Positions 965-33,346 of a stretch of 64,000 bases of DNA are shown piece after piece. Position numbers and translations under genes: made by a program. Source of the DNA: a phage; the NCBI GenBank assembly GCA_018093385.1, contig GCA_018093385.1_4808.1, one strand, 5' to 3'. Within the stretch, counting starts at the first letter, position 1, and each line of letters starts with the position of its first letter. The notes below the pieces were generated by a model. The model had not been told where the DNA came from and searched no databases. It was given only the letters and a program-made list of their open reading frames with translations.

Positions 965-1045
965 AAATCACCTCACTTGTTAACGTATAATGAGTATAAC
1001 TTAATTGCGCATAAAGTAAAGGCGCTTTTCAGCGCCTTGAGTGAA

Positions 1046-3379
1046 TTATTTCGCTGATTTCAGCGCGGCTATCTCTGCCTCTAGTGATTCAACCTTTTTC
1101 ATCAACTCCTGCACCACGTGCATCGTGTCAAGAAGCATTGGAGTTGTGTCTAGTTGTTTTTGTTCAACCTCTACGCCTTCGCTCGGATAGAATTTCACCG
1201 TTTTTACATACAACGGGTCAATAATCTCTGCTTGTTGAGCGATGACACCCCTTCTTACCCTTTCCTTTTCATCATTGTTGTAAATAAATGTCACATATTC
1301 CAACGATGAAAGGTTGCTCCATGCTTTTTCAACCGTTCCTGGCTGTATGTCATGCTTCAAATTCTCATCAGAGATGGCATTCTTTTGAAGAGTATAAAAG
1401 CTATCTGATCCAAGAATTGATACAGAGAAAAACACATCATGAGAGTTAGGCTGTATGTTCATCCTTGTCTGGTACTGCGCATTATCATCTCCAACGACGA
1501 GCCAAGTGCCCTGCGCAAAACTTCCGTTATTGTTGTGGATCAAACCGTGGTGAAGCGTTGTGGCATAACCTGTATCAACCTGTTGACCGCCGCTAAAAAG
1601 ACTGTTGAAAGCATAGTTTTGACCCATTGACTGTCTCACCGTTGCATAGGTGCCGATTCTTGTTCCAGTCTCACTCCAAGACATTAAGCTTCCATATCTC
1701 GCGGCGAATCTGTCGCTGCTAAGAGTTCCTGCATCATCAAATGCAAGGTCTTTAGTCACCCCTTTTGTTTTATTGTACACAGACAGTATTGCATAATAAA
1801 ATCCATCCATGTATGCATCGCATCGCAATCCGGCATCAGCTTCAACAACAGTACCAATTTTGTATTGTGCCCTTACTTGCCCTGAAGACCCCTTAACCCC
1901 AGAGCCTGGTCGAACAGAATCCGCATTGATAACTGACCATTGCGTATTCGCGGCAACAAAGCCACCAGATGCACGAATCACCCAAACACCGACAAAGTTG
2001 CGCGGCACGATTTCAGCCGCTGATCTTCCGTATACAGGGCTTGATCGAGAAGCGTCAAAGTTTGTTTGTATGAATCTTGAACCAGAACCTGCTGCTGCTG
2101 GAGAGTCCCCAGAAGTGATCGACTGAAAAGCGCCATTAGTCGCCACCTGACTTGGCGCAGAAGCCAACGTGACCATTGTGCGCGGCGCGGAGTAAGTTAT
2201 ATTTGGTGCACCTGACTCAGAAACGACTCCATTTGATGATGGATTGCCTCCATCACCTCGACCGAACAGGGCCTGAATAGAACCCGTCTGCACGCCGTTT
2301 CGGTCCGGCACACGAAATGTTGTCGTTCCGTTACCTAAAGAGTATTTACCGCGTTTCGCTGGGTCCGCTAACCAATCTGCATCTGCAATAGGTGAAAGCA
2401 TTTGCGCATACGCCCAAAGTTCAGGCCAGTCAGCGCGGTTTAACAACTGCCCATCAGCAACGACTTCATACGGTTGAATATAAGCACGGCTGTCGCGTAA
2501 GTGGAAGTCACCGACGCCATAGTTCATAACGCCGTTCATACTTGGTCCAACGGTGCCTGTGTTTACTAAGTTCTCAACCCAACGCTTGGTCGCGGCATCA
2601 TGATCGTTTACTGGGTCACCAGCAAGCGGTGTTGCACCTTGTGGACGAATATTCAACCATGCTTGCGCATTGTCGGCTGACCCTGTGCCGCCCATAGAAG
2701 TCGGAACGATGTTTTGATCAGCGACTGTGCCAAATCCAAAAGCGGACTTCATACCCTGAATGGTAGTTTGGCCTGTGCCGCCGTTGGCGACTGGGATTAT
2801 GCTTGACTCGGAATAAATCATGACCCAAGGAGACCACGTGCTATTTTGAGCGTTGAATCTTCTTTGGTAAGTATTGTTAATGGAATATGATGTGTATTTT
2901 TGAATGCAACTTTCGGTCGATACTCCTGTTTGCAACACCTCTAAGACTCCTGCTTGTTCAACAGGATAGTTCAATCCAAAAGAGGCGGCGCCATCAGAGT
3001 TCTGATAATATTGCCCAAACCAGCTGCCGGTAAGAGCATTAAGATTCATGCCGGAAGGAACAGTGCCAAAATTTCGCAAGGTATTGGTCAAAGTCGCAGC
3101 AGTTGTTCGAATGGAAAGCATGTCACCAGCCGCCCATGCACGCGCTGCAGTTCCTTCCTGCGCACGCTGCACGGTTAGCACGTTTCCAACTACGGCTGTT
3201 ACTGTGACGATTTCAAATTGGAGGCCTGTTGCAGCGTCGACGATTGTCGCCACTACACGCTCGTTCGCGGCCAAGGTCGGAAAGCCCGACCCTGAGCGGA
3301 TTGTGATTGTGGTGTCTGAAGTCGTCGTTGGCTGGGCAAGCGCGACCTCAAAGTTGTTTTTGAATATTAGCCTTGGCAT
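1046..3379 (-). CDS. tail fibre/tailspike protein with C-terminal intramolecular chaperone (peptidase S74-like) domain
   Basis: 777 aa; C-terminal region SDENLKHDIQP...GVIAQQAEIIDPLYV...LEAEIAALK resembles auto-cleaving chaperone domains of phage fibres/endosialidases; Gly/Ser/Thr-rich central part. Confidence 0.6.
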   Translation of the reverse strand: MPRLIFKNNFEVALAQPTTTSDTTITIRSGSGFPTLAANERVVATIVDAATGLQFEIVTVTAVVGNVLTVQRAQEGTAARAWAAGDMLSIRTTAATLTNTLRNFGTVPSGMNLNALTGSWFGQYYQNSDGAASFGLNYPVEQAGVLEVLQTGVSTESCIQKYTSYSINNTYQRRFNAQNSTWSPWVMIYSESSIIPVANGGTGQTTIQGMKSAFGFGTVADQNIVPTSMGGTGSADNAQAWLNIRPQGATPLAGDPVNDHDAATKRWVENLVNTGTVGPSMNGVMNYGVGDFHLRDSRAYIQPYEVVADGQLLNRADWPELWAYAQMLSPIADADWLADPAKRGKYSLGNGTTTFRVPDRNGVQTGSIQALFGRGDGGNPSSNGVVSESGAPNITYSAPRTMVTLASAPSQVATNGAFQSITSGDSPAAAGSGSRFIQTNFDASRSSPVYGRSAAEIVPRNFVGVWVIRASGGFVAANTQWSVINADSVRPGSGVKGSSGQVRAQYKIGTVVEADAGLRCDAYMDGFYYAILSVYNKTKGVTKDLAFDDAGTLSSDRFAARYGSLMSWSETGTRIGTYATVRQSMGQNYAFNSLFSGGQQVDTGYATTLHHGLIHNNNGSFAQGTWLVVGDDNAQYQTRMNIQPNSHDVFFSVSILGSDSFYTLQKNAISDENLKHDIQPGTVEKAWSNLSSLEYVTFIYNNDEKERVRRGVIAQQAEIIDPLYVKTVKFYPSEGVEVEQKQLDTTPMLLDTMHVVQELMKKVESLEAEIAALKSAK

Positions 3380-3417: not shown

Positions 3418-3759
3418 TTAATTTCTTTTGAGAGGAATATGACGGTGGCTGCCATTATTTGGTTTAATAATGAGCATAAAAACGATTAGAAAGATGATGG
3501 CTGATATACTTAATTCAATCAGCGCGGCTTGAGATATAGATTGATCTTCATGATACTGCTTTTGCATTTCTGCTTTCTTCTGAGCGCAAACTTCAGGTGA
3601 TATGTAATCGCCTTTTGAGTTGCCATAATAAATTTCGCCATTCTCAGAAATAAGCCTGCCGCAAATATCCGTTTCAGCCTGTGCGCTTGACATCATAATA
3701 ACAGTTCCGATGATAGCGGCGATAGTCCAGATTAACAGTTGTGATAAAGTGTTGTTCAT
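3418..3759 (-). CDS. small membrane protein (likely start at internal Met, MNNTLSQ...)
   Basis: Strong RBS AAGAGG 5 nt upstream of ATG at 3759; N-terminal hydrophobic segment plus C-terminal hydrophobic segment; track ORF extends to 3849. Confidence 0.45.
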   Translation of the reverse strand: MNNTLSQLLIWTIAAIIGTVIMMSSAQAETDICGRLISENGEIYYGNSKGDYISPEVCAQKKAEMQKQYHEDQSISQAALIELSISAIIFLIVFMLIIKPNNGSHRHIPLKRN

Positions 3760-3955
3760 AATAACCTCTTTAAATTCCCTTCCCATTTCGGGAAGGGTGA
3801 TAATTATTTTACGCGAAAGAATAGGCGCGTGCCACACAGCGAGTCCCAACGGCCCTCACCATCCCATATCGACCCAACACCAGCAGCGATTGGGCCAGCA
3901 GAATTGGCGGAATTGGCCCAGGCAAGACGTTTCAACTTCCAACTGCACCATCGAT

Positions 3956-4207
3956 TCACAGTTCATCTCCAGATTGCAAAATAAGACCCGCATAGAGGAT
4001 TGCCAAAGCCAAAGGTGCACCACCACCAGCCTCTCTATTCTCTTTGATTTGAAGAGTATCCTTAAGGAATTGCAACTGAACGTTGAATTCATTTTCAATT
4101 CCAAGAACTCCAGCCAATTCTTTTACAGAATCTGCATATGCCTTGTCTAGCAATTCTTTTGGTACTGTTAAAGTCAATTCATTTGCCATTTTCTTTCCAC
4201 TCCACAA
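3956..4207 (-). CDS. hypothetical protein (83 aa)
   Basis: ORF in track; co-oriented small-gene cluster. Confidence 0.4.
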   Translation of the reverse strand: MWSGKKMANELTLTVPKELLDKAYADSVKELAGVLGIENEFNVQLQFLKDTLQIKENREAGGGAPLALAILYAGLILQSGDEL

Positions 4208-4400
4208 ATGTGCTGCCGCTTGTTTCTCTATTTAGCAGGTATCTGCCGCGCATTCCATGAAGGCTGAATTCAACCGTCGATGGATTAGATTTTGAAAGCC
4301 ATATAGGCTGCCCGTCGAATGGACCGCCTACGCATGTATATTTCGCTTTTGGCTCACTCCTTTTGGGCTGTTTTGCCCGCTCTTTTATTGATAGTCTCAT
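4179..4400 (-). CDS. hypothetical protein (73 aa)
   Basis: ORF in track; overlaps neighbours by a few nt as in operons. Confidence 0.4.
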   Translation of the reverse strand: MRLSIKERAKQPKRSEPKAKYTCVGGPFDGQPIWLSKSNPSTVEFSLHGMRGRYLLNRETSGSTFVEWKENGK

Positions 4401-4615
4401 CAGTCTTCACCTTGAGATTCCAGACAAGTAAGGACAAGCCACGTCATCGGAAGAATCAAAACCAGAGAAATGAGGGACCAGATAGACCAGCACAAGATGA
4501 CAGACTTGAATGTGTGAACGTCGCCAAACGCAGCAGTAAAACAGAATCCCATTACAAATGCAATAGCTGTGGAATGGTTATCTATGGCTTTGATGGCACG
4601 GTCGATGAGTTTCAT
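4400..4615 (-). CDS. small membrane protein (71 aa)
   Basis: Two hydrophobic segments (FVMGFCFTAAF, ILCWSIWSLISLVLILP). Confidence 0.4.
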   Translation of the reverse strand: MKLIDRAIKAIDNHSTAIAFVMGFCFTAAFGDVHTFKSVILCWSIWSLISLVLILPMTWLVLTCLESQGED

Positions 4616-4792
4616 ATTACCTCCGGTTTTGAGTTAATATGATTATAACGCAGACTTTCAGAAAGGCAAACTTTTTGTGAATTTTAATCAAAAAAATGGC
4701 CAGAAAAAATCTGGCCGAAAGATCACCCTTTATCCACTACTAAGCTGGAATCATAATTTTACTTGATATAGCTTGTACAAGCAAACTATAAT

Positions 4793-6253
4793 ATGAATAA
4801 AATATTAACACATAATTGGAAATTCATGTACCAGTTGAATCCTGCTTTAAAAGAAGTCTGGAAGACAAAAGCGCGATACAAAGTGATATACGGCGGTCGT
4901 GCATCTTCCAAATCGCACGATGCCGCTGGTTTTGCTATTTATTTGGCGGCAAACTTCAAATTAAAATTCCTTTGCGTTCGACAATTCCAGAACAAGATTT
5001 CTGAATCTGTATATACTCTATTAAAAGACAAAATAGAGATTTCTGATTTTAAAGATGAGTTCAATTTATTAAAGAACTCTATCGAACACAAAAGAACTAA
5101 ATCTGAATTTCTATTTTATGGTATCGCACGTAACGTTGATGAAATCAAATCAACAGAAGGCGTTGATGTTCTTTGGCTGGAAGAAGCGCACGCGCTTACT
5201 GAAGAACAGTGGGACATTATTGAGCCGACAATACGTAAAGAAGGGTCCGAAATATGGATCATCTTTAACCCTGATGAAGAGGCCGATTTCGTATATCAAA
5301 ACTTTGTTATGCGACCGCCGAAGAATGCCATTGTTAAAAAGATAAACTGGCAAGACAATCCATTTTTGTCGCAAACGATGCTGGACGTTATTGCAGGCAT
5401 GTACGAGCGTGACCCGAAAAAGGCAGAGCACGTTTATGGCGGCGTGCCGAAGACTGGCGGCGACAAATCTGTAATCAACCGCGCATTCGTTAAGGCCGCG
5501 CTTAATCTACACAAGCACCCCACGCTGGGCTGGAGTTTGTCAGGGTCTAACCGTATAGGCTTTGACGTAGCGGACGATGGCGACGACCTTAACGCCACTG
5601 CATTCGTCACAGGAAACGTATTGCGCGGCATCAAGACGTGGGAAGGCCTGGAAGATGAATTGTTGAAATCGGCAAGCGGAGTTTGGAAAGATGCGCTTAC
5701 ATTCGGCGCTTCCATAACTTATGACGCCATCGGTGTCGGCGCTTTTGCTGGTTCAAAATTTGATGAACTAAACGAGTATGCAATACATGAAAATCCATCA
5801 TTTCCAAGAATCGAATTTAATGCGTTCAACGCGCAAGGGTCTGTTGATGATCCTGATGACGTTTTTCTTGAATTACCACACGTTGAAATACTCAATAAAG
5901 ACCATTTCGCAAACATAAAAGCGCAAAAATGGACTGAAATTGCAGAGAGATTCAGAAAGACATACGAATATGCAACTGGGCAAGCCGTATATCCGACTGA
6001 TGAATTGATTTCAATCGACACCGATGGTATACCGGAACTTGGGATTCCAGCTTGGACTACTGAAGAGATTGAGACGTTTCTTTTTGAGATGTCAGCGCCG
6101 CGCAAGGATACATCTGTTCTTGGTAAGTTCAAAGTTGAATCTAAAAAGGACATGGCAAAGCGCGGAGTCAAATCACCTAACAAAGCGGACGCAGCAATCA
6201 TGGCATTGATGAAACCAATCGTTGCAGCATCCGGCTTCTTCTCTAACCTTTAA
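4793..6253 (+). CDS. terL: terminase large subunit
   Basis: Walker A-like YGGRASSKS, Walker B-like VLWLEEAH, C-terminal nuclease-like region; 486 aa; precedes portal. Confidence 0.85.
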   Translation: MNKILTHNWKFMYQLNPALKEVWKTKARYKVIYGGRASSKSHDAAGFAIYLAANFKLKFLCVRQFQNKISESVYTLLKDKIEISDFKDEFNLLKNSIEHKRTKSEFLFYGIARNVDEIKSTEGVDVLWLEEAHALTEEQWDIIEPTIRKEGSEIWIIFNPDEEADFVYQNFVMRPPKNAIVKKINWQDNPFLSQTMLDVIAGMYERDPKKAEHVYGGVPKTGGDKSVINRAFVKAALNLHKHPTLGWSLSGSNRIGFDVADDGDDLNATAFVTGNVLRGIKTWEGLEDELLKSASGVWKDALTFGASITYDAIGVGAFAGSKFDELNEYAIHENPSFPRIEFNAFNAQGSVDDPDDVFLELPHVEILNKDHFANIKAQKWTEIAERFRKTYEYATGQAVYPTDELISIDTDGIPELGIPAWTTEEIETFLFEMSAPRKDTSVLGKFKVESKKDMAKRGVKSPNKADAAIMALMKPIVAASGFFSNL

Positions 6254-7070: not shown

Positions 7071-9446
7071 ATGAAAATTCTTGGCATAAAACTCTGGGAG
7101 AAGACGCAACCAGAAGCCGAACCAGCGGAGATGCCGCCAGGCGACCCATTGGCACCGTTTGAACGCCTTGAAAGGCGCGGCAGCGGTCAACGCTGGGAAA
7201 AGACTGAAAGCAATCGACCGACCTTTAAAACGGTTGATGACTTCCCTTTATATGAGCCTGATATCAACGGGGACGGCGTTGCAATCATCAAAGGTCGCTC
7301 AGTAGATTCAGCAACCGTATCCAAAAAAGTTATGGATAATGCCTTAAAGAACATCAGTTCAGAAGGGCAGGTGAATCCATACACAGTGCCTATTCAGTTG
7401 CAAAACTGGTACTTGTCGCAGTCATTCATCGGCTATCAAGCTTGCGCCATCATCGCGCAGCACTGGCTGGTGAACAAGGCTTGTTCCATGGTAGGTCGCG
7501 ATGCGGTCCGTAAAGGCTGGGAAGTCAAATCCAGTTCTGAGTCGGAATTGTCAGTACAGGCCAGCGAACGCCTAAAGCAAATTGATAAAGAATTTAATAT
7601 CAAAGAGCACTTAGTTGAAGCCGAACGATTCAAGAATATTTTTGGCATCCGCGTCATCATATTTGATGTGCGCAGTGATGACCCAGAATATTATAGTAAA
7701 CCTTTTAACATCGATGGTGTGACAAAAGGGTCTTATAAGGGAATCATTCAGGTTGACCCTTATTGGATGATGCCATTCTTGACGTCTGAAAACACTGCAG
7801 ACCCTGCGTCACAGCATTTCTATGATCCAGAATACTGGGTTATCAGCGGACAGCGTTATCATCGCAGCCACCTAATCATCTTGCGCAACGATGAGCCAGC
7901 TGATATTCTCAAGCCGACTTATATCTACGGCGGCATTCCTCTGACTCAGCAGATTTATGAACGTATCTATGCCGCTGAACGTACCGCTAACGAAGCGCCA
8001 TTGCTGGCGATGTCTAAGCGTACAACCACGCTGCGGACCGACGTTGACAAGGCGATTGCCAATGAGCGGTCGTTTGCCGAACGTCTGATGATGTGGATTA
8101 AGTACCGCGACAACTATGCGGTAAAAGTGCTTGGTCAGAAAGAAGAGATGGACCAGTTTGACATCAACTTGTCAGACTTCGACAGCATCATCATGAACCA
8201 GTACCAGCTGGTGGCTGCAATCGCAAAAGTGCCGTCGACGAAGCTATTAGGGACGTCACCTAAAGGCTTTAACGCCACTGGTGAGTTCGAGATGGTCAGC
8301 TATCACGAAGAATTGGAAACTTGTCAGCAGCACGATTTGACGAAGATTCTGGACCGTCACTATAAAATCCTTTTGAAATCTGAAGGTGTTGAAGTCGACG
8401 TTAAAGTGGCATGGGAGCCAGTTGGTTCACTTACTGCTACTCAGCTTGCAGAGATTAACGACAAACGAGCGAATACTGGTAAGACTCTCATTGATGCTGG
8501 CGTCATCTCCCCTGATGAAGAGCGCGACCGCATCAAGGACGACAAAAACAGCGGCTACAACCGTTTGCCAGAAGATACAGCAGAAGAAACCCCAGGGATG
8601 TCTCCAGAGAATATGGCATTGCTTGGCAAGTCTGCTGGTGAAGTTCTGCAAGGTAAAGCCGATATTGAACAGGCCAAAGCTGATGTCGTCAAGATGGGCG
8701 GCCAGTTCTATAGTGAGACTGGTATCATGCCGGAAGGTGCCGCGCGCGGTGAGTTGGCAGAAAACCCTGACAGGGCGCCAGTTGAGATCAACATGGATGA
8801 TACCGATGACGAATCAAGCCATCAGGTTGATGTCCTAACGCAACTGAAAGAAGGTCTGGAGGGTATTGCTGACTATTACCTTAAAGAAGGTCAGGATGTG
8901 GATTTTGACCCTCAAAAAGACGCAAGGTCTGTGCAGCCGTCTACCCTTCCAAGCGTAAAAGGCAATGTAGTCAACTTGCGCCACAATGTAGGGAAGATGG
9001 ATGCCTCATCGCTGCCTAAGATGAAGTTGCACGGGATGATTCTTGGTATTGAGAATCCTCGCAACAGCATTCGCAGGGGCAACAGCCTTGATGGTGAATG
9101 GGCAGTTAAGATGCCGCACCATTACGGATTTATCAAAGGCACCAAGGGCGCTGATGGTGATGAAGTCGACTGCTTTGTTGGACCAAATATGAAGTCGCCT
9201 AAAGTATTCATCATTAACCAAAATGATAATTATTCTGGCGAATTTGATGAACACAAGTGTATGCTTGGATTTGATTCAGCAGAAGAAGCGAAAGAAGCTT
9301 ATCAAGCATCATTTGGTAACGGTTGGAATGGATTTGACTCAATCCACGAATTGGATGTAAACTCATTCAAGGAGTGGTTGAAGGGTGATTGCTCTCAAGC
9401 ATATGGAGCACTCAATAATCCTACTAATTCACCGAAGCAAGGTTGA
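7071..9446 (+). CDS. portal protein with C-terminal extension
   Basis: 791 aa ORF between TerL and MuF-like gene (synteny); C-terminal ~120 aa carry pyrophosphatase-like motifs (see findings). Confidence 0.55.
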   Translation: MKILGIKLWEKTQPEAEPAEMPPGDPLAPFERLERRGSGQRWEKTESNRPTFKTVDDFPLYEPDINGDGVAIIKGRSVDSATVSKKVMDNALKNISSEGQVNPYTVPIQLQNWYLSQSFIGYQACAIIAQHWLVNKACSMVGRDAVRKGWEVKSSSESELSVQASERLKQIDKEFNIKEHLVEAERFKNIFGIRVIIFDVRSDDPEYYSKPFNIDGVTKGSYKGIIQVDPYWMMPFLTSENTADPASQHFYDPEYWVISGQRYHRSHLIILRNDEPADILKPTYIYGGIPLTQQIYERIYAAERTANEAPLLAMSKRTTTLRTDVDKAIANERSFAERLMMWIKYRDNYAVKVLGQKEEMDQFDINLSDFDSIIMNQYQLVAAIAKVPSTKLLGTSPKGFNATGEFEMVSYHEELETCQQHDLTKILDRHYKILLKSEGVEVDVKVAWEPVGSLTATQLAEINDKRANTGKTLIDAGVISPDEERDRIKDDKNSGYNRLPEDTAEETPGMSPENMALLGKSAGEVLQGKADIEQAKADVVKMGGQFYSETGIMPEGAARGELAENPDRAPVEINMDDTDDESSHQVDVLTQLKEGLEGIADYYLKEGQDVDFDPQKDARSVQPSTLPSVKGNVVNLRHNVGKMDASSLPKMKLHGMILGIENPRNSIRRGNSLDGEWAVKMPHHYGFIKGTKGADGDEVDCFVGPNMKSPKVFIINQNDNYSGEFDEHKCMLGFDSAEEAKEAYQASFGNGWNGFDSIHELDVNSFKEWLKGDCSQAYGALNNPTNSPKQG

Positions 9447-28156: not shown

Positions 28157-30895
28157 ATGCAAAAGTTTGACACAAACCTGTTGCAAAACCTTAAGTGGAT
28201 GCAGAACAATGCACCAAACATTACGTCTTTGGTGCAAAAGAAAAGTGACTGGTATGAAAGATACCAAGATCAGTTTTGGGCTGACTGGTACAATAACATT
28301 TTTAACATTGACACTTGTGATGCAATGGGCATTTATATTTGGTGCGACATTCTTTGCATACCAAGAGACTTTGTGGACTTAAGCAATTATGAGCACAACT
28401 GGGCGTTTGGACCGACGCGCGACAACTTTGAAGGTGCGGACAACATCGGCGGCAACTTCTTTGGTGCTGGCGGGAAGGTTGTCAAGAATATCGAAGAAGC
28501 GCGCATACTTCTTAAGCTTCGTTATCTGACGCTTACAAGTGATGGCCGCATCGAAAGTATCAACCGCATGCTTAAGTGGATTTTCAACCGTGGAGAGGCT
28601 TGGGATTACTCTTCATCACGCTACGCATATGTGACCGACAATACTCAAGGCGCGGTGTCTTCGTCTGAATCAACCAATGGCTCATTCCTTCTGTACGACT
28701 GGCAAGGGTCAACTGAGATTCAGCATGATTATAAGCAGATACTTTTAAGCCATGGCAACAACGCCGGACTGACCATCAGCGGAGTGTCAGGCACCGTGTC
28801 ACGGATGGCGCACCCAGATTGGTACTCATGGGGAAATGGTTCCGGCACAGGGCTTGTCGGCGGCGACACCAGACAGTATGGTGGGCCTGATTACTATGGG
28901 CAGTTGTGTGGTGATTACCCAGGCGAGGCCATAGAGAATTTTGCCAACGCAGTAAGGGTCATCAAGACGGCTTCAAGCGGTGAGCCTGTGTATTCTTTGG
29001 CCAATAATCCAAGTGCCAAATCAATTTCGCTTCCTTCGCAGGCTGGCGTCAACGTTTGCTATAGCTTCTACATAAAGGTGCTTTCTGAAAACGTCGCTTC
29101 TGTTTCTGTTACAGAGAATAGTGATGCATCGAGTAATGGAAAGCTGTTTGACCCCGTCACTGGCCAGTTCAACTTGGACCCGTCATTGAGCTATTTCATC
29201 AAAGGCAAATTCGATGGAGTAAGAAGGGAATCAAACCGTGGTGGCATAAAAGCAATTGGCGGCGATTGGTATCGAATCTGGATTGTAGAGCAGACGGCAA
29301 CCGCTGCTTCTGGAGTAAGTACCAGCTTTTCAATAGAGTTGAAGGCGACTGCCGCTGGATCAACTCAAACTCGTGAATTGCCTGAAGGGTCTGATGCTCT
29401 TTTGTTTGGATACTCGATTTGCGTCTGCGACCCTGTTCAGAATCCAAATGGACCTGAGCCTTATTTTTATGGAACGCAAAACCCTCCTTCTGACGGAACA
29501 GCAATCCTGTCTGTAACGGCGGGAACACTCAATAACATCTCCTGTGCAAACGGACCGCTGACGACAAGAAACGGTGTAGTTGGCGAGTCATTCATGCAAC
29601 CTGGCTCATCACTTGCATACTCTGGCTCAATCGGCGGCCACCCGTACCCAGGGAACGCCACGCTGATTGCAGAGACTGATGGAATCAGACGCTCATGGAA
29701 CGTTAGCAGGCTGGATGGAGTACCGCCGCCGCCGACCGCCGACTATTACATGGAATACGTCATCGGACCTTATTTCGCCAACAACCTGTCTGACAACTTT
29801 AAGACGCTAGTTGGTGACAGGAATGAAGGATTCTTGCCAGCAAATGCCGGAATACGCTGGCAGCTTTACCAAGAAGTCGCAGACTTATCTGATATTGATT
29901 TGACTGTCAGCGACATAACAGACACGCGCGTAGGATTTGAAACGGAAGGTGTTGCGTGGATTAACACTGACGGTATCATCAGAGTTGGCGGCATCAACGA
30001 GTGGCCGCTGAACAACTTCAACGGTGTGATACGCCAGCTTGAATCTTTGAAAGGTGTAAACCAGGTCGTCGACGGCGCGCTTGTCAACGACTATTCAATC
30101 TCAAAAGCATCAAGAGATGACTTTGGTCGTGAAATACCACGCGCGGCAATCACTAACTATTGGCGCTACACACAGCCAAATGACGGTACATCTTTTGGCA
30201 ATATCATTGAGGATGGCGCAAACACTGTCACAGCGACGCCAATCAGCGGTGTGCCCAACCAGTTCCCATCATTCAAGCTTTCCGCTACAATAGGGACTGT
30301 GCCAACGTCCGGTTATGCACGCGCTGTACTTGCTACTAAATACACTGGCACCCTGACTGGCCCTTTGTCATTTATCGCAATAGTCAAAAACAACACGGTT
30401 AACGGTCAAAAACTTTTTGTAACTGTACCGGATGGGATGGGTGGCTATATCCCTAAATTCTACAACATAGGCGCAGGTGATTTGCAACGTATCGAAATTG
30501 ACCTTGCCGCTGAGATTGTTGAAGGCGCTACCTGGGATGGATCAACAGGCGGCATCAGCATCGGTTTGATATCAGGGAAAGACTTGCCGACCGAAGTTGG
30601 TACGACTCTTGAACTTGATATTTTAAGCTTGATGCTTGTGTCTGGTAGTACGATGAATGCGCTTGCAATTTCAACAAGCGAAGATTTCGCAAAGAAAACT
30701 GCGACTTCTATATACATCAAAAACCCAGGATCACTTGCCACTGGAGTTCAATTGATTGCTTCTAATGGTGATGTTGTAGCAACAGTAAACTTTCCGAGAA
30801 GTGCTGCTGGCGGTTATGTTTCAAGCATGAACATAACTGACTTAACTGGTGATTGGGCATCGACCCTTTTATCAAAAATTAAATACATCGTGTAG
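28157..30895 (+). CDS. large baseplate/tail fibre-associated structural protein
   Basis: 912 aa between baseplate J-like gene and tail fibre gene. Confidence 0.45.
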   Translation: MQKFDTNLLQNLKWMQNNAPNITSLVQKKSDWYERYQDQFWADWYNNIFNIDTCDAMGIYIWCDILCIPRDFVDLSNYEHNWAFGPTRDNFEGADNIGGNFFGAGGKVVKNIEEARILLKLRYLTLTSDGRIESINRMLKWIFNRGEAWDYSSSRYAYVTDNTQGAVSSSESTNGSFLLYDWQGSTEIQHDYKQILLSHGNNAGLTISGVSGTVSRMAHPDWYSWGNGSGTGLVGGDTRQYGGPDYYGQLCGDYPGEAIENFANAVRVIKTASSGEPVYSLANNPSAKSISLPSQAGVNVCYSFYIKVLSENVASVSVTENSDASSNGKLFDPVTGQFNLDPSLSYFIKGKFDGVRRESNRGGIKAIGGDWYRIWIVEQTATAASGVSTSFSIELKATAAGSTQTRELPEGSDALLFGYSICVCDPVQNPNGPEPYFYGTQNPPSDGTAILSVTAGTLNNISCANGPLTTRNGVVGESFMQPGSSLAYSGSIGGHPYPGNATLIAETDGIRRSWNVSRLDGVPPPPTADYYMEYVIGPYFANNLSDNFKTLVGDRNEGFLPANAGIRWQLYQEVADLSDIDLTVSDITDTRVGFETEGVAWINTDGIIRVGGINEWPLNNFNGVIRQLESLKGVNQVVDGALVNDYSISKASRDDFGREIPRAAITNYWRYTQPNDGTSFGNIIEDGANTVTATPISGVPNQFPSFKLSATIGTVPTSGYARAVLATKYTGTLTGPLSFIAIVKNNTVNGQKLFVTVPDGMGGYIPKFYNIGAGDLQRIEIDLAAEIVEGATWDGSTGGISIGLISGKDLPTEVGTTLELDILSLMLVSGSTMNALAISTSEDFAKKTATSIYIKNPGSLATGVQLIASNGDVVATVNFPRSAAGGYVSSMNITDLTGDWASTLLSKIKYIV

Positions 30896-30905
30896 AGGAA
30901 CGGCA

Positions 30906-32693
30906 ATGCCAACACTTATTAACAGACCTTTCGCGCAAAGCGGTGATGTATCCGTGGTGCCGGATGCAAGTCCAAGCGGTTATGTGAACTTCCAGCGCGG
31001 CTACACCCCTGACTATGCACTTGCGCTAGAAGCCGGAAACGTAGCCGCGAAAGCAGTTGAACGTGAGTCGATGAACTGGTTGCTGAATCTGATCACCGAC
31101 AACCTTATGTTCATACAGGACCACGGCGCTCAACAGTATTTCTCGTCTGACTTGAAGCCAGATGGATACCCGAAAAATGCCATCGTTGTCAGCAACTCTG
31201 GCACCCCTTCAGCGCCTGAATGGCGCATTTTCCAGAGTGTGGTAGACGGCAACACCAGCGCAGTCCCAGCTAACGGCGAAACGGAATCTTGGCAGGAATT
31301 GACGCTGCCTAGCGAAGCGAGAAAATATATTCCTATGCCTGCTGGCGGCGATGCGCAAAACCCGTATTTTGTTCGCGGACTGATTTCAAACTTTGTGGAC
31401 TTTGATAATATCACGACTTCCACAACTATTGTCATTCAATCTGATGCCGTTGCCGCTCTCTGCTCTAACATCCCGAATGCGGTTGGTGCGACGAAGGTTG
31501 CAGGACGTCTCCAGGTTTGCGCTTGGCAGGTTGATGCGCAGACTTTCGCCCTGCAACAATACACGTCAATGAACGGATATGTTTTCACCCGCTCTTATAC
31601 GTCTGGTGCTTGGAGTGCTTGGATTCAAAATGCAACTGTTCAAGACGTGCAAATCGGCACGCCGAATCTTGCATCAGGTAAAGGCGCACAAGATATAATC
31701 CTTACCGTTCCGGCAGGTTATGCATGGCCGCCGTCAGCAGGTAGTCGCCTGACAATTGTCAATGATGTAACGACTACCGGACCTGTTACCGTGACCATTG
31801 GTGCAAACAAAGTTGCAGTCCTTGGATTCGACGGCGGCGAGCTGCCAGCAGGGTCCATCGTCGGCCTTCTTCCTTTTACTATTATTTATGACGGCACCGT
31901 TTGGCGTCTTCTTCAAGCATTCGGCGCGGCGCAAATCGGTGTCGATGCTAGTGAGCCGCAACAGTTTGTTACAAAGCGCCAACTCGATGCTTTGGCCGCG
32001 AAGTTGATCACTATGGGTGATGTGTTCGAAGTCGGTGAGACTCGATTCTTGACTAATGGCACCAACCCAAATACTAAACTGGGCGCTTACGGTCAGGTAT
32101 GGACCAGATTGCCTGATAACATGGTCATCAGGACGTCTGGCACGGCAAGAAACGGTCTTGACACTGGAGGTGCAGACTCTGTTACTCTTACTGCCGCCAT
32201 GCTTCCTCTGCACAATCACAGCGTTAACATAACTACGCGACAAAGTGGTCCATGGTCCAATACCACTGGAGACGCAGGCAACCATAACCACACAGGCGAT
32301 ACCAGTCAAAACGGTGCTCACGTGCACGGAATGGATTCGGCAGGCAACCACCACCATGACAGTAGCTGGGGTGAGGCGAATACGAATGATGCGCGGTATG
32401 GCGTGTATGATGGGACGCACAACAACTTCGGAAGTCGAAAGGGCGGCGACTGGGACAACTATAAATACAACACCTCAACTAACGGCAACCACGTTCACAA
32501 TATTCAATCTTCTGGGTCACACACTCATGGGTTGAATATAAATTACGCTGGCAATCACAGCCATGGATATACCCTCCCCGCTCACACTCACGATGTGGTC
32601 GGTAACACTGGCGATGCAGGGCAGTCCGTCCCAACGGCTGTTTCAACTCTGCCGCGATATGTCGTCTTGAACGGCTGGTACAGAAGCGCATAA
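30906..32693 (+). CDS. tail fibre protein with His-rich C-terminal region
   Basis: N-terminus MPTLINRPFAQSGD typical of tail fibre N-domains; C-terminus has repeated H-x-H units (NHNHTGD, HVHGMD, NHHHDSS, HVHNIQ, HTHGLN, HSHGYT, HTHDVV). Confidence 0.6.
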   Translation: MPTLINRPFAQSGDVSVVPDASPSGYVNFQRGYTPDYALALEAGNVAAKAVERESMNWLLNLITDNLMFIQDHGAQQYFSSDLKPDGYPKNAIVVSNSGTPSAPEWRIFQSVVDGNTSAVPANGETESWQELTLPSEARKYIPMPAGGDAQNPYFVRGLISNFVDFDNITTSTTIVIQSDAVAALCSNIPNAVGATKVAGRLQVCAWQVDAQTFALQQYTSMNGYVFTRSYTSGAWSAWIQNATVQDVQIGTPNLASGKGAQDIILTVPAGYAWPPSAGSRLTIVNDVTTTGPVTVTIGANKVAVLGFDGGELPAGSIVGLLPFTIIYDGTVWRLLQAFGAAQIGVDASEPQQFVTKRQLDALAAKLITMGDVFEVGETRFLTNGTNPNTKLGAYGQVWTRLPDNMVIRTSGTARNGLDTGGADSVTLTAAMLPLHNHSVNITTRQSGPWSNTTGDAGNHNHTGDTSQNGAHVHGMDSAGNHHHDSSWGEANTNDARYGVYDGTHNNFGSRKGGDWDNYKYNTSTNGNHVHNIQSSGSHTHGLNINYAGNHSHGYTLPAHTHDVVGNTGDAGQSVPTAVSTLPRYVVLNGWYRSA

Positions 32694-32701
32694 GGTGATT
32701 T

Positions 32702-33346
32702 ATGATTAATGCAAACGTAATATCTAAAGGGACCGGATGCAGCATGGATGTTGCTGAAAAATGGGTCGACCCCTTCAAGCAGGCTTGTGAGCACTACGGA
32801 ATCAAAAGCAAGAATGCCATCGCGGCGCTGCTTGCAAACGTAGGAGTGGAAACAGGCAGTCTGAAGACCTTTGTGGAAAACCTGAATTATTCCGCTCAAG
32901 GTCTTGCTAATACGTGGCCTAGCCGTTACAGCGCCAGCGGTCGTTTCGGTGGCGCACCAAACTCCTTGGCATTGTCGATTGCCCGTAAACCAATGGAAAT
33001 CGCCAATAATACATATGCAAACCGAATGGGAAATGGTTCGGTAGCATCTGGCGACGGTTGGAAGTACCGTGGCCGTGGTGCCATTCAGCTGACTGGAAAG
33101 GACAACTATGCAGAGTATTCAAAGCAATCAGGGTATGACGCATTGAATAACCCTGACATTTTGACTGAGCCGAAATACATTGCTGACAGCGCGGCATGGT
33201 TCTTCAAGAACAGCGGTTGCATTCCACTTGCCGATGCGGGCGCATTTGATTCGACCGTGAAGCGGATTAACGGGGCCGCGCCAAATACGGCTAACCATGG
33301 GGATTTGCGACGGAAGCGTTACAAGGGAGCACTAGCAGTTATGTAA
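32702..33346 (+). CDS. endolysin, glycoside hydrolase family 19-like
   Basis: YRGRGAIQLTGKDNYAEY motif characteristic of GH19; RBS AAGGTGA. Confidence 0.75.
   Translation: MINANVISKGTGCSMDVAEKWVDPFKQACEHYGIKSKNAIAALLANVGVETGSLKTFVENLNYSAQGLANTWPSRYSASGRFGGAPNSLALSIARKPMEIANNTYANRMGNGSVASGDGWKYRGRGAIQLTGKDNYAEYSKQSGYDALNNPDILTEPKYIADSAAWFFKNSGCIPLADAGAFDSTVKRINGAAPNTANHGDLRRKRYKGALAVM

Follow-up and report, generated by a model that had tools for sequence, protein, structure and literature searches.

The 777-aa open reading frame on the minus strand of the 64,000-nt phage sequence analysed here (the window) very probably encodes the hypervariable receptor-binding fibre of a Wifcevirus myophage, namely the 'T-shaped' fibre with two receptor-binding domains (RBDs) described by Humolli et al. 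2025 (PLoS Biol, PMC11990801). The fibre nature of the product is apparent from its match to PHROG 6921 'tail fiber protein' (E=2e-200, aa 23-777), and the protein is 100% identical to NCBI protein P0001, from a contig labelled E. coli. The phage in the window is a Wifcevirus myophage, with backbone DNA 96-98% identical to known members. In this role the gene would determine host range in a phage group under consideration for biocontrol of E. coli O157.

The position of the gene upstream of the terminase and on the opposite strand, as described in an earlier note on this DNA, agrees with its coordinates (Table 1) and with the Terminase_3 match (PF04466, E=3e-37) of the divergent large terminase ORF (4793-6253, plus strand). 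The gene is likewise opposed to the tail module, whose sheath-to-baseplate genes are encoded on the plus strand. A Shine-Dalgarno sequence, GAGGA, is located 7 nt 5' of the fibre ATG. A sigma-70 promoter scan returned 13 sites against 7.6 ± 2.5 expected, which is too weak for assigning a fibre promoter. Neither Pfam nor PHROG matched the small neighbours on the minus strand (478-964 and 3418-4615), so that nothing beside the fibre gene was recognised as a separate chaperone or adaptor gene for the fibre.

Table 1. Coordinates of the fibre gene, its modules and reference genes in the window
Feature	Position	Strand	Remarks
Terminator-like hairpin	1019..1038	-	8-bp stem, 5 G-C pairs; weak T-tract; begins 8 nt past fibre stop
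Variable ('T-shaped') tail fibre CDS, complete	1046..3379	-	777 aa, 83.5 kDa precursor, ATG start
Stop codon of the 777-aa fibre gene	1046-1048	-	
Intramolecular chaperone (Peptidase_S74), aa 670-777	1049..1372	-	12.3 kDa; long C-terminal helix aa 745-776
SDENLK motif, predicted autocleavage site and dyad	1355..1372	-	Ser670 codon 1370-1372, Lys675 codon 1355-1357
RBD2 distal tip, aa 490-669	1373..1912	-	22 alleles among 114 homologues
Conserved junction FVGVWVIRASGGFVAANTxWSVIN, aa 461-489	1913..1999	-	3' boundary of RBD1 block
RBD1 variable insert, aa 381-460	2000..2239	-	33 alleles among 114
Gly-rich shaft and conserved RBD1 core, aa 201-380	2240..2779	-	Tail-collar-type motif
Pyocin-type knob, aa 101-200	2780..3079	-	Hypervariable, 30 alleles at 80% identity among 114
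N-terminal anchor, aa 1-100	3080..3379	-	At least 94% conserved in 114 homologues
Portal	7071-9446	+	
Tail module, sheath to baseplate	about 17.5-33 kb	+	
Other, conserved tail fibre	30906..32693	+	Pbunavirus gp47-like N-terminus, HxH-repeat tip; ATG at 30906 confirmed

Relation to known fibres

Both Wifcevirus fibres, including the 'T-shaped' one with two variable receptor-binding domains inside a single protein, have already been described, as has the horizontal exchange of the dual-RBD fibre (Humolli et al., PMC11990801). The two-fibre arrangement and the dual-RBD fibre are thus already known, and as these and the exchange were all published in 2025, little is added here as discovery. The fibre of Humolli et al. 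(Gp114 of ManiWeber/Bas99; Bas98_0110, Bas100_0105 and Bas101_0105) is the orthologue of the window fibre, encoded at the same position and on the same strand with the same length of 777 aa, and the two are built alike, from an N-terminal anchor through RBD1 and RBD2 to a C-terminal chaperone. The window protein is 93-94% identical to those of Bas98, Bas100 and Bas101 and 67% identical to that of Bas99. It differs from the published fibres in its knob allele and by a synonymous DNA divergence of ~10-15% distally, and in nothing different in kind.

The history of the gene is nevertheless distinct from that of the backbone. Compared with known Wifcevirus members, the fibre gene reaches at most 88% DNA and 94% protein identity over its full length, and its synonymous divergence from Bas100 amounts to 10-15% of nucleotides versus 2-4% for the backbone. 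Within RBD2, 49 codons differ from Bas100 by synonymous changes only and 4 by amino-acid-changing ones. The distal part (aa ~235-775) is common to T5-like siphoviruses and Gordonclarkvirinae podoviruses. In combination, the occurrence of the distal part across morphotypes, the shuffling of modules among 114 homologues (see below) and the excess of synonymous divergence over the backbone bear out the earlier suggestion of a host-range cassette acquired separately.

A further relative is LtfA of phage DT57C (PDB 8HQZ chain d; Golomidova 2016, Ayala 2023), which is also S74-ended. Residues 216-561 of the window fibre correspond to LtfA 522-876 (E-values of 9e-141 and 8.5e-123), the shaft and RBD1 core (aa 201-380) are about 75-90% identical to LtfA residues 522-690, and the chaperone aligns to LtfA 962-1074; the part of LtfA homologous to the window fibre is not resolved in 8HQZ. 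The RBD2 and chaperone alleles of the two proteins differ, with 46% identity over aa 235-777. LtfA has, moreover, a long coiled coil, a second protein (LtfB) that it bears as a branch, and a T5-type N-terminus threading into the LtfC ring at the tip of a siphovirus tail, whereas the window fibre carries a GP4-type anchor and a pyocin-type knob in place of the LtfA N-terminus. LtfA is a host-range determinant that binds the O22/O87 O-antigen; its specificity is exchangeable by recombination, and a swap of its C-terminal region switches the host (PMC4728585).

The knob was recognized from its match to R-type pyocin fibre knobs (PDB 6CL5, 6CL6 and 6CT8) over aa 102-189, with an E-value of about 1e-6, or 7e-9 with a profile, and a fold match was also obtained in the confident part of the window fibre model. 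In pyocin fibres the knobs are reportedly shaft elements, and the receptor is said to be bound by a C-terminal 'foot'. In Wifcevirus-type fibres, by contrast, the knob is among the most variable modules.

As regards the receptor, all four BASEL Wifcevirus phages are totally dependent on the O16 O-antigen (PMC11990801), and the O16-dependent Bas98-101 have RBD1 inserts 94-96% identical to that of the window fibre. In Bas99 only RBD1 is common to the window fibre (95%) and RBD2 is not (17%). The RBD1 insert of FEC19, an O157:H7 phage, is 98% identical to that in the window, and the RBD1 allele alone is consequently no predictor of O-type.

Module alleles and their exchange

The allele counts in Table 1 refer to 114 Wifcevirus-type homologues, with modules clustered at 80% identity for the knob. 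Two separately variable blocks, aa 381-460 and aa 490-669, are parted by the conserved junction, and natural short relatives (~380 aa) exist without the RBD1 block. The 114 sequences display 72 distinct combinations of module alleles. RBD1 allele 0, for instance, is found with 7 different RBD2 alleles, and RBD2 and chaperone alleles pair almost one-to-one. As judged from these sequences, the variable modules assort independently, with the exception of RBD2, which is inherited with its chaperone. The allele patterns show that modules are exchanged by recombination at conserved junction motifs and that new specificities are generated in this way, the partners being other Wifcevirus phages as well as T5-like and Gordonclarkvirinae ones; RBD2 moves as a unit with its own chaperone. 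The latter rule and the conserved junctions at aa ~200, ~380 and 461-489 and in the last ~17 residues are useful for host-range engineering.

The knob is 73-77% identical to those of Bas98, Bas100 and Bas101 and is the sole module that sets the window fibre apart from theirs; its codon differences are amino-acid-changing as often as synonymous. Together with the 30 alleles among 114 homologues, an allele richness on a par with that of the two named RBDs, these features raise the rather doubtful idea that the knob, which was not treated as an RBD in the 2025 description (Humolli et al., PMC11990801), could be a third independently exchanged receptor-contacting module. To the same tentative grade belongs the idea, suggested by the vB_Eco4M-7 peptide counts given below, that in some alleles the S74 chaperone might stay unreleased and be retained on the particle. 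Either one, if true, would modify the picture of two RBDs and a chaperone that is cleaved and released.

The shaft contains a tail-collar-type motif (DGQLLNRADWPELW...TTFRVPDRNG). The Pfam Collar family scored below threshold in the window fibre (13.6 bits versus a cutoff of 24), and across homologues it was matched at E<=1 in 26 of 32 sequences, with a best E-value of 0.0018. The gp12-like fold given to RBD1 in the 2025 description was not reproduced: a similarity to T4 gp12 was not detected by BLASTP, the hhalign comparison of the family profile with gp12 gave a probability of 0.4%, and gp12 was absent from the results of the PDB profile search with the fibre family.

The S74 domain and orthologues in virions

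The C-terminal S74-type intramolecular chaperone proposed earlier is confirmed by Pfam PF13884 (Peptidase_S74), which matches aa 670-722 over profile positions 1-54, above the cutoff (E=6.1e-10; 39.7 bits versus 22), and the profile was matched in 32/32 homologues. Both members of the expected catalytic dyad, Ser670 and Lys675, are present. They are invariant in alignment A1 (32 sequences, with some alleles only 20-30% identical in the chaperone domain) as well as in alignment A2 (20 sequences), and the predicted cut falls between Ile669 and Ser670. In the K1F endosialidase the dyad is reportedly Ser911/Lys916, with the lysine likewise five residues past the catalytic serine. The SDxxxK motif at the start of the domain and the long C-terminal helix are shared with other S74 chaperones (K1F endosialidase 3GW6, GA-1 gp12 3GUD, T5 pb1 and MyRF ICA 7DC3), and fold matches were obtained to 7DC3 and 3GW6. 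Profile searches matched MyRF ICA 7dc3 (4e-8) and S16 gp37 6f45 (6.5e-5), the match to the GA-1 gp12 chaperone 3gud being weak (0.11).

The full-length AlphaFold2 monomer, computed from the 32-sequence alignment, had a mean pLDDT of 50 and was usable only in the knob and chaperone regions, with low confidence in the RBD1 region. In the chaperone the pLDDT was 74-88 over aa ~680-770, with a helix at 745-776, and a Foldseek search with the confident C-terminal part of the model returned 7dc3 (E 4e-5, TM 0.55 on target) along with 3gw6, the chaperone of an endosialidase (E 2e-3). When RBD2 and chaperone (aa 492-777) were modelled separately from 20 more diverse homologues, the mean pLDDT was 48, and Foldseek gave no match to this second model at E<=0.001. 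No match to T5 pb1, whose fibre-tip fold is attributed to RBD2 in the 2025 description, was obtained from either monomer model, both of which are poor.

Published mass spectrometry places orthologues of the fibre in CsCl-purified phage particles, so that the outcome taken as refuting in the earlier note, a lack of S74 similarity and of the protein in virions, is not what is observed. For vB_Eco4M-7_27 there were 34 peptides covering 80% of the protein and 2013 PSMs; for ECML-117 gp24 the number of peptides was 18 (PMC7048862). On the same evidence a reading of the gene as non-structural or as a moron was rejected. Autocleavage with release of the chaperone is predicted for the window fibre by analogy with other S74 proteins, and on this point the orthologue proteomics are split. 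In our re-analysis of the published data for ECML-117, all 109 PSMs were located in aa 8-669 and 0/109 in the chaperone. Conversely, for vB_Eco4M-7 the chaperone accounted for 500/2013 PSMs (25%) and for 22% of the fibre peptide area, although it makes up only 14% of fibre residues. With chaperone peptides this abundant, it cannot be taken for granted that the chaperone is fully cut off and released. Junction-spanning peptides were looked for in the published tables and not found, the expected ones being too short to be informative. The self-cleavage step thus appears consistent with the ECML-117 data and not fully consistent with those from vB_Eco4M-7.

Proposed function and alternative readings

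In the mechanism that we favour, the 83.5-kDa precursor would trimerise, and the S74 chaperone would nucleate folding of the distal tip, in which the chains are intertwined, before cutting itself off at Ser670 via the Ser670/Lys675 dyad to give a 71-kDa mature fibre, as suggested by family membership and the invariant dyad. The invariant N-terminal anchor would hold the trimer on the virion, with the baseplate as the most likely site. The RBD1 insert, lateral in the shaft, and the RBD2 tip may then contact variable surface glycans, chiefly O-antigen, possibly with a contribution from the knob, and this contact would permit passage through the O-antigen layer and set the host range. The genetic evidence for O-antigen binding by LtfA, the O16 dependence of Bas98-101 with their near-identical RBD1 and the allele pattern all point to such glycan contact. 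The conserved HxH-tip fibre probably acts in a later, invariant step.

An unlikely variant of this mechanism retains the same fibre and role, and places it on the neck or collar (whisker-like) or at another non-baseplate site, with the two fibre sets at different heights. The only solved homologue of the anchor is the N-terminus of a podophage fibre (PDB 8JOV chain 1, 18 chains), which a tblastn search with the aligned fragment assigned to the Ralstonia phage GP4. GP4 fibres attach via an Ig-like adapter ring that encircles the head-to-tail adapter (PMC11445570), and in myophage Bas63 the neck whiskers are homologous to GP4 Fiber-1 (PMC12609058), although the 18-chain protein matched here may be a GP4 protein other than Fiber-1. 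The anchor is also without homologue in the Pbunavirus relatives that have solved baseplates, so that baseplate attachment is unsupported by solved relatives, and the fibre gene adjoins packaging and head genes outside the tail module. Humolli et al. called the relation of the two fibre sets unclear, yet from their AlphaFold-Multimer models they read the N-terminal domain as a baseplate attachment domain (PMC11990801). Furthermore, a ~670-aa fibre on a myovirus neck could not touch the cell surface before the baseplate, and the 912-aa baseplate protein at 28157-30895, which is ~400 aa longer than its Pbunavirus counterparts, could speculatively offer a docking site. Much more remote is an enzymatic tailspike or depolymerase of endosialidase type instead of a non-enzymatic fibre. 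Such a reading might be drawn from the Pfam family name, 'Chaperone of endosialidase', and from the annotation of the phage SP13 orthologue as 'endo-N-acetylneuraminidase', which looks like a name transfer from the S74 domain. However, the endosialidase similarity is confined to the chaperone domain, the fibre body matches LtfA, the pyocin fibre knob and the GP4 fibre, and Pfam, NCBIfam and PDB searches returned neither a sialidase nor a beta-helix nor any other catalytic family, the NCBIfam scan giving no match for either fibre. The depolymerase reading was rejected, as no catalytic domain is present.

The window does encode a second, structurally different fibre, in agreement with the earlier note: the S74-ended protein is structurally unrelated to the HxH-tip fibre of the tail module, which in its N-terminal part resembles gp47, the tail fibre of Pbunavirus Pa193 (9b45_2, E=5.5e-32). 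Both have orthologues in particles (vB_Eco4M-7_27 and _63). It is, however, quite improbable that the two serve as alternative receptor-binding proteins on different hosts, like the two tailspikes of SP6 or K1-5. An alternative determinant would be expected to vary like the 777-aa fibre, whereas the DNA of the HxH-tip fibre is 97-98.7% identical in the best 10 of 29 Wifcevirus records, O157:H7 phages included, and at least 80% identical in all 29; this conservation makes it an unlikely alternative specificity determinant. The total requirement for O16 O-antigen in all four BASEL phages likewise argues for sequential use and against the conserved fibre as another way in. The earlier interpretation of two fibres as dual receptor specificity is therefore not sustained, since the tail-module fibre is conserved and the literature puts the duality inside the 777-aa protein. 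The description of the tail-module fibre as His-rich holds for its tip, where the 614-aa reading has 8 HxH motifs (aa 455-581), and not for the protein as a whole, which contains only 3.3% His.

Gene, domain architecture and chaperone

The 777-aa variable fibre is encoded by exactly the ORF that the earlier note had proposed, with position, strand and length all matching, and lies on the minus strand, the tail module being carried by the plus strand. The phage is a Wifcevirus myophage related to WFC, WFH, FEC19, ECML-117 and the BASEL phages Bas98-101. The whole protein was assigned to the tail-fibre family phrog_6921 (PHROGs, E=2e-200), and a 100% identical NCBI protein comes from a contig of 68,615 bp with an E. 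coli label. Over 25 kb of the structural module, DNA identity to several of these Wifcevirus phages is 96-97.6%; the best DNA matches of the fibre gene reach only 88%, and at least 80% of the gene is covered at the DNA level in only three phage records.

Features of the window and conservation along the 777-aa fibre (114 full-length homologues, scored against the window's residue)
Feature	Position	Strand	Remarks
777-aa fibre ORF	1046-3379	-	ATG start
Fibre ribosome-binding site	7 nt upstream	-	GAGGA (sequence)
Fibre C-terminal end	1046-1096	-	last ~17 codons, ends LEAEIAALKAAK
Terminator-like hairpin	1038-1019	-	starts 8 nt past fibre stop codon
Small ORF directly upstream of fibre gene	3418-3759	-	113 aa from ATG; hypothetical in Bas100 annotation
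Sigma-70-like site	4669-4642	-	10/12 consensus match only
Terminator-like hairpin, fibre block/terminase intergenic	4716-4698	-	sequence pattern only
Sigma-70-like site	4763-4792	+	11/12 consensus match only
Large terminase	4793-6253	+	PF04466; divergent from fibre gene
Portal	7071-9446	+	divergent from fibre gene
Baseplate protein, 912 aa	28157-30895	+	first ~185 aa match 9b45_v, 8env_K
Conserved fibre	30906-32693	+	ATG at 30906; eight HxH motifs in distal 130 residues
Endolysin	32702-33346	+	glycoside hydrolase 19 (chitinase-like) PF00182, E=4e-7; phrog_181, E=5e-69
Fibre anchor	aa 1-100		conserved, >=94% identical
Fibre knob	aa 101-200		variable
Fibre shaft/RBD1 core	aa 201-380		conserved
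Fibre RBD1 insert	aa 381-460		variable
Fibre	aa 461-480		conserved
Fibre	aa 481-760		variable
Fibre	last 17 residues		conserved again

Dissection by PDB sequence search, repeated with the family profile, related aa 4-104 to the N-terminus of the Ralstonia podophage GP4 fibre (8JOV chain 1; 18 chains), aa 102-189 to the knob domain of R1/R2 pyocin fibres, aa 216-561 to LtfA of T5-like DT57C (8HQZ chain d; 8.5e-123, whole-sequence E=9e-141), and aa 673-775 to the C-terminus of LtfA. The full-length AlphaFold2 monomer was poor overall (pLDDT 50) but confident over knob and chaperone, and the predicted knob fold resembles pyocin fibres in Foldseek. Comparison of RBD1 with T4 gp12 gave an hhalign probability of only 0.4% (family profile) and a negative BLASTP result, and gp12 was absent from the PDB profile-search matches of the family. 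In 26 of 32 members a sub-threshold match to Pfam Collar recurs at one common site (best E 0.0018), where the motif DGxxL...W/YPxL...TTFxVPDxxG is recognisable by eye. Likewise, the T5-like character of RBD2 was not detected at the sequence level, as also reported by Humolli et al. (PMC11990801).

The C-terminal S74 intramolecular chaperone claimed earlier stands: by sequence, dyad and fold the fibre is a member of this family, and autocleavage is predicted. Peptidase_S74 ("chaperone of endosialidase") matches aa 670-722 (E=6.1e-10, 39.7 bits; cutoff 22), and Ser670 and Lys675 belong to the motif SDENLK, which aligns with the first position of the Pfam profile. Neither residue varies across 32 aligned sequences, some with chaperone alleles sharing only 20-30% identity with the window's, or across a second alignment of 20 more distant RBD2-chaperone proteins. 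With the family profile the C-terminus matches the MyRF ICA domain (7dc3, 4e-8) and S16 gp37 (6f45); its match to the GA-1 gp12 chaperone (3gud) is weak. The modelled chaperone (pLDDT 74-88) likewise matches the MyRF ICA domain and the endosialidase intramolecular chaperone (3gw6) in Foldseek. After cleavage, the mature fibre (aa 1-669) would be 71.1 kDa and the chaperone 12.3 kDa. Across Wifcevirus fibres the extreme C-terminus, LEAEIAALKAAK, is kept even where identity in the remainder of the chaperone is as low as 20-30%, which suggests a fixed 3' recombination boundary within the coding sequence.

Module exchange and separate history

The fibre itself is already known from Humolli et al. 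(PLoS Biol 2025; PMC11990801), who described two different fibres in Wifcevirus phages: a conserved one with a T4 gp37-like HxH tip, encoded in the tail locus, and a T-shaped one with N-terminal anchor, Gp12-like RBD1, T5-like RBD2 and C-terminal intramolecular chaperone, whose RBDs are highly variable and exchanged horizontally with Tequintavirus and Gordonclarkvirinae. The present analysis makes small additions concerning RBD2-chaperone linkage, natural variants that lack RBD1, the hypervariability of the knob as a third module, and split proteomic evidence on chaperone release. A role of the knob as RBD is not discussed in that paper, from which the word "pyocin" is absent.

Clustering the modules of 114 sequences individually at 80% identity gave 30 knob, 33 RBD1 insert, 22 RBD2 and 15 chaperone alleles, with 72 distinct combinations among the 114 fibres. 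Seven RBD2 alleles are found alongside the window's own RBD1 allele. Between RBD2 and the chaperone, alleles correspond almost strictly one-to-one (one chaperone allele is common to two RBD2 alleles), as predicted for a dedicated chaperone and its client. Short relatives of ~380 aa, in which the shaft motif TKRWV.NKF..GI is fused directly to ANTSWSVIN, are without the entire RBD1 block, consistent with a shaft into which RBD1 is inserted laterally.

Except for a different knob, the window carries nearly the same allele as Bas98/100/101. Relative to Bas100, the anchor is backbone-like (97.3% DNA identity), and identity over shaft, RBD1, RBD2 and chaperone is 85-90% in DNA but 95-98% in protein; synonymous-only and amino-acid-changing codons number 60 and 4 in aa 201-380, and 49 and 4 in RBD2. 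This codon pattern therefore indicates a separate and older history of the distal part, with strong purifying selection. For the knob, identity is 73% in both DNA and protein, with 29 synonymous-only versus 27 amino-acid-changing codons; it is thus a replaced allele. By tblastn the full-length protein is confined to 29 phage records, each of them Wifcevirus, and the aa ~235-775 cassette occurs also in T5-like siphoviruses (SelmaRatti 65%, phC17 60%, DT57C 46%) and Gordonclarkvirinae podoviruses (52-60%). With this separate history and sharing across phage groups, the suggestion of a separately acquired host-range cassette was right.

Virion presence, receptor and attachment

Published shotgun mass spectrometry of CsCl-purified vB_Eco4M-7 and ECML-117 (Necel et al. 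2020; PMC7048862) detected the fibre orthologues, which are therefore particle-associated: vB_Eco4M-7_27 was the top-scoring protein (34 peptides, 80% coverage, 2013 PSMs), and ECML-117 gp24 gave 18 peptides. The supplementary peptide lists were mapped onto these orthologues. In ECML-117 all 109 PSMs fall within aa 8-669, the final peptide stopping 8 residues short of the Ser, and the chaperone received none against seven expected tryptic peptides of detectable size; this fits cleavage and release. In vB_Eco4M-7 the chaperone, 14% of residues, accounts for 25% of PSMs (500 of 2013) and 22% of the summed area, so that either the chaperone is retained or precursor co-purifies; that preparation also contained a few non-structural proteins (PMC7048862). 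The evidence on release is thus split between the two phages, and the published lists for both include no peptide spanning the junction. Transfer to the window's allele is indirect, as both chaperone alleles are ~28% identical to it.

The closest characterised homologue is DT57C LtfA, which binds O22-type O-antigen (O87 in DT571/2), is needed only on hosts bearing O-antigen, and switches host specificity by recombination in its C-terminal region (PMC4728585, PMC10713586). For Bas98-101, dependence on O16 O-antigen is total (PMC11990801). All four have RBD1 inserts with 94-96% identity to that of the window; in RBD2, identity to the window is 97-98% for Bas98/100/101 and only 17% for Bas99. Since the insert is common to the four and RBD2 is not, RBD1 is the shared candidate for O16 dependence, a view that Humolli et al. 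reached by phylogeny (PMC11990801). The RBD1 insert of FEC19, an O157:H7 phage, is 98% identical to the window's, and the allele therefore does not simply map to one O-type.

The earlier note also offered dual receptor specificity as a reading of the two fibres. Dual binding sites inside the 777-aa fibre, with sequential use of the two fibres, is the more likely reading. The conserved fibre, which matches tail fibre gp47 of Pbunavirus Pa193 (9b45_2, E=5.5e-32), has a locus whose DNA identity is at least 80% in all 29 records and 97-98.7% in the ten that match best. The relationship between the two fibre sets was termed unclear by Humolli et al. (PMC11990801). Fibres of the GP4 type are attached to an adapter ring where head and tail meet (PMC11445570), and GP4 Fiber-1 relatives are neck whiskers in myophage Bas63 (PMC12609058); no homologue of the anchor was found in Pbunavirus. 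The 777-aa fibre most likely attaches at the baseplate. Only the first ~185 aa of the 912-aa baseplate protein match Pbunavirus baseplate wedge/triplex proteins (~500 aa), leaving ~700 aa and making it roughly 400 aa longer than its counterparts; speculatively, this remainder could serve to dock the extra fibre. Its orthologue vB_Eco4M-7_62 (98.6 kDa) is particle-associated (PMC7048862).

Neighbouring genes

Within the first 5 kb, the best matches to a sigma-70-like site lie at 4640-4800, in the intergenic region from which the fibre-containing minus-strand block and the terminase diverge. The 113-aa product upstream of the fibre gene, without a match in Pfam or PHROG, has a segment resembling a signal peptide or TM segment at its N-terminus, MNNTLSQLLIWTIAAIIGTVIMMSSAQA, and a hydrophobic one at its C-terminus. 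The portal combines PF06381 (aa 122-468) with a fused C-terminal inorganic-pyrophosphatase-like domain (PF18823 InPase, E=4e-46, aa 649-771); its ECML-117 orthologue gp34 (88.6 kDa) was found in particles (PMC7048862), with C-terminal-region peptides including GADGDEVDcFVGPNLK and VFIVNQNDNYSGEFDEHK. The endolysin gene lies immediately 3' of the conserved fibre gene, and the lysis function therefore comes directly after the tail module.
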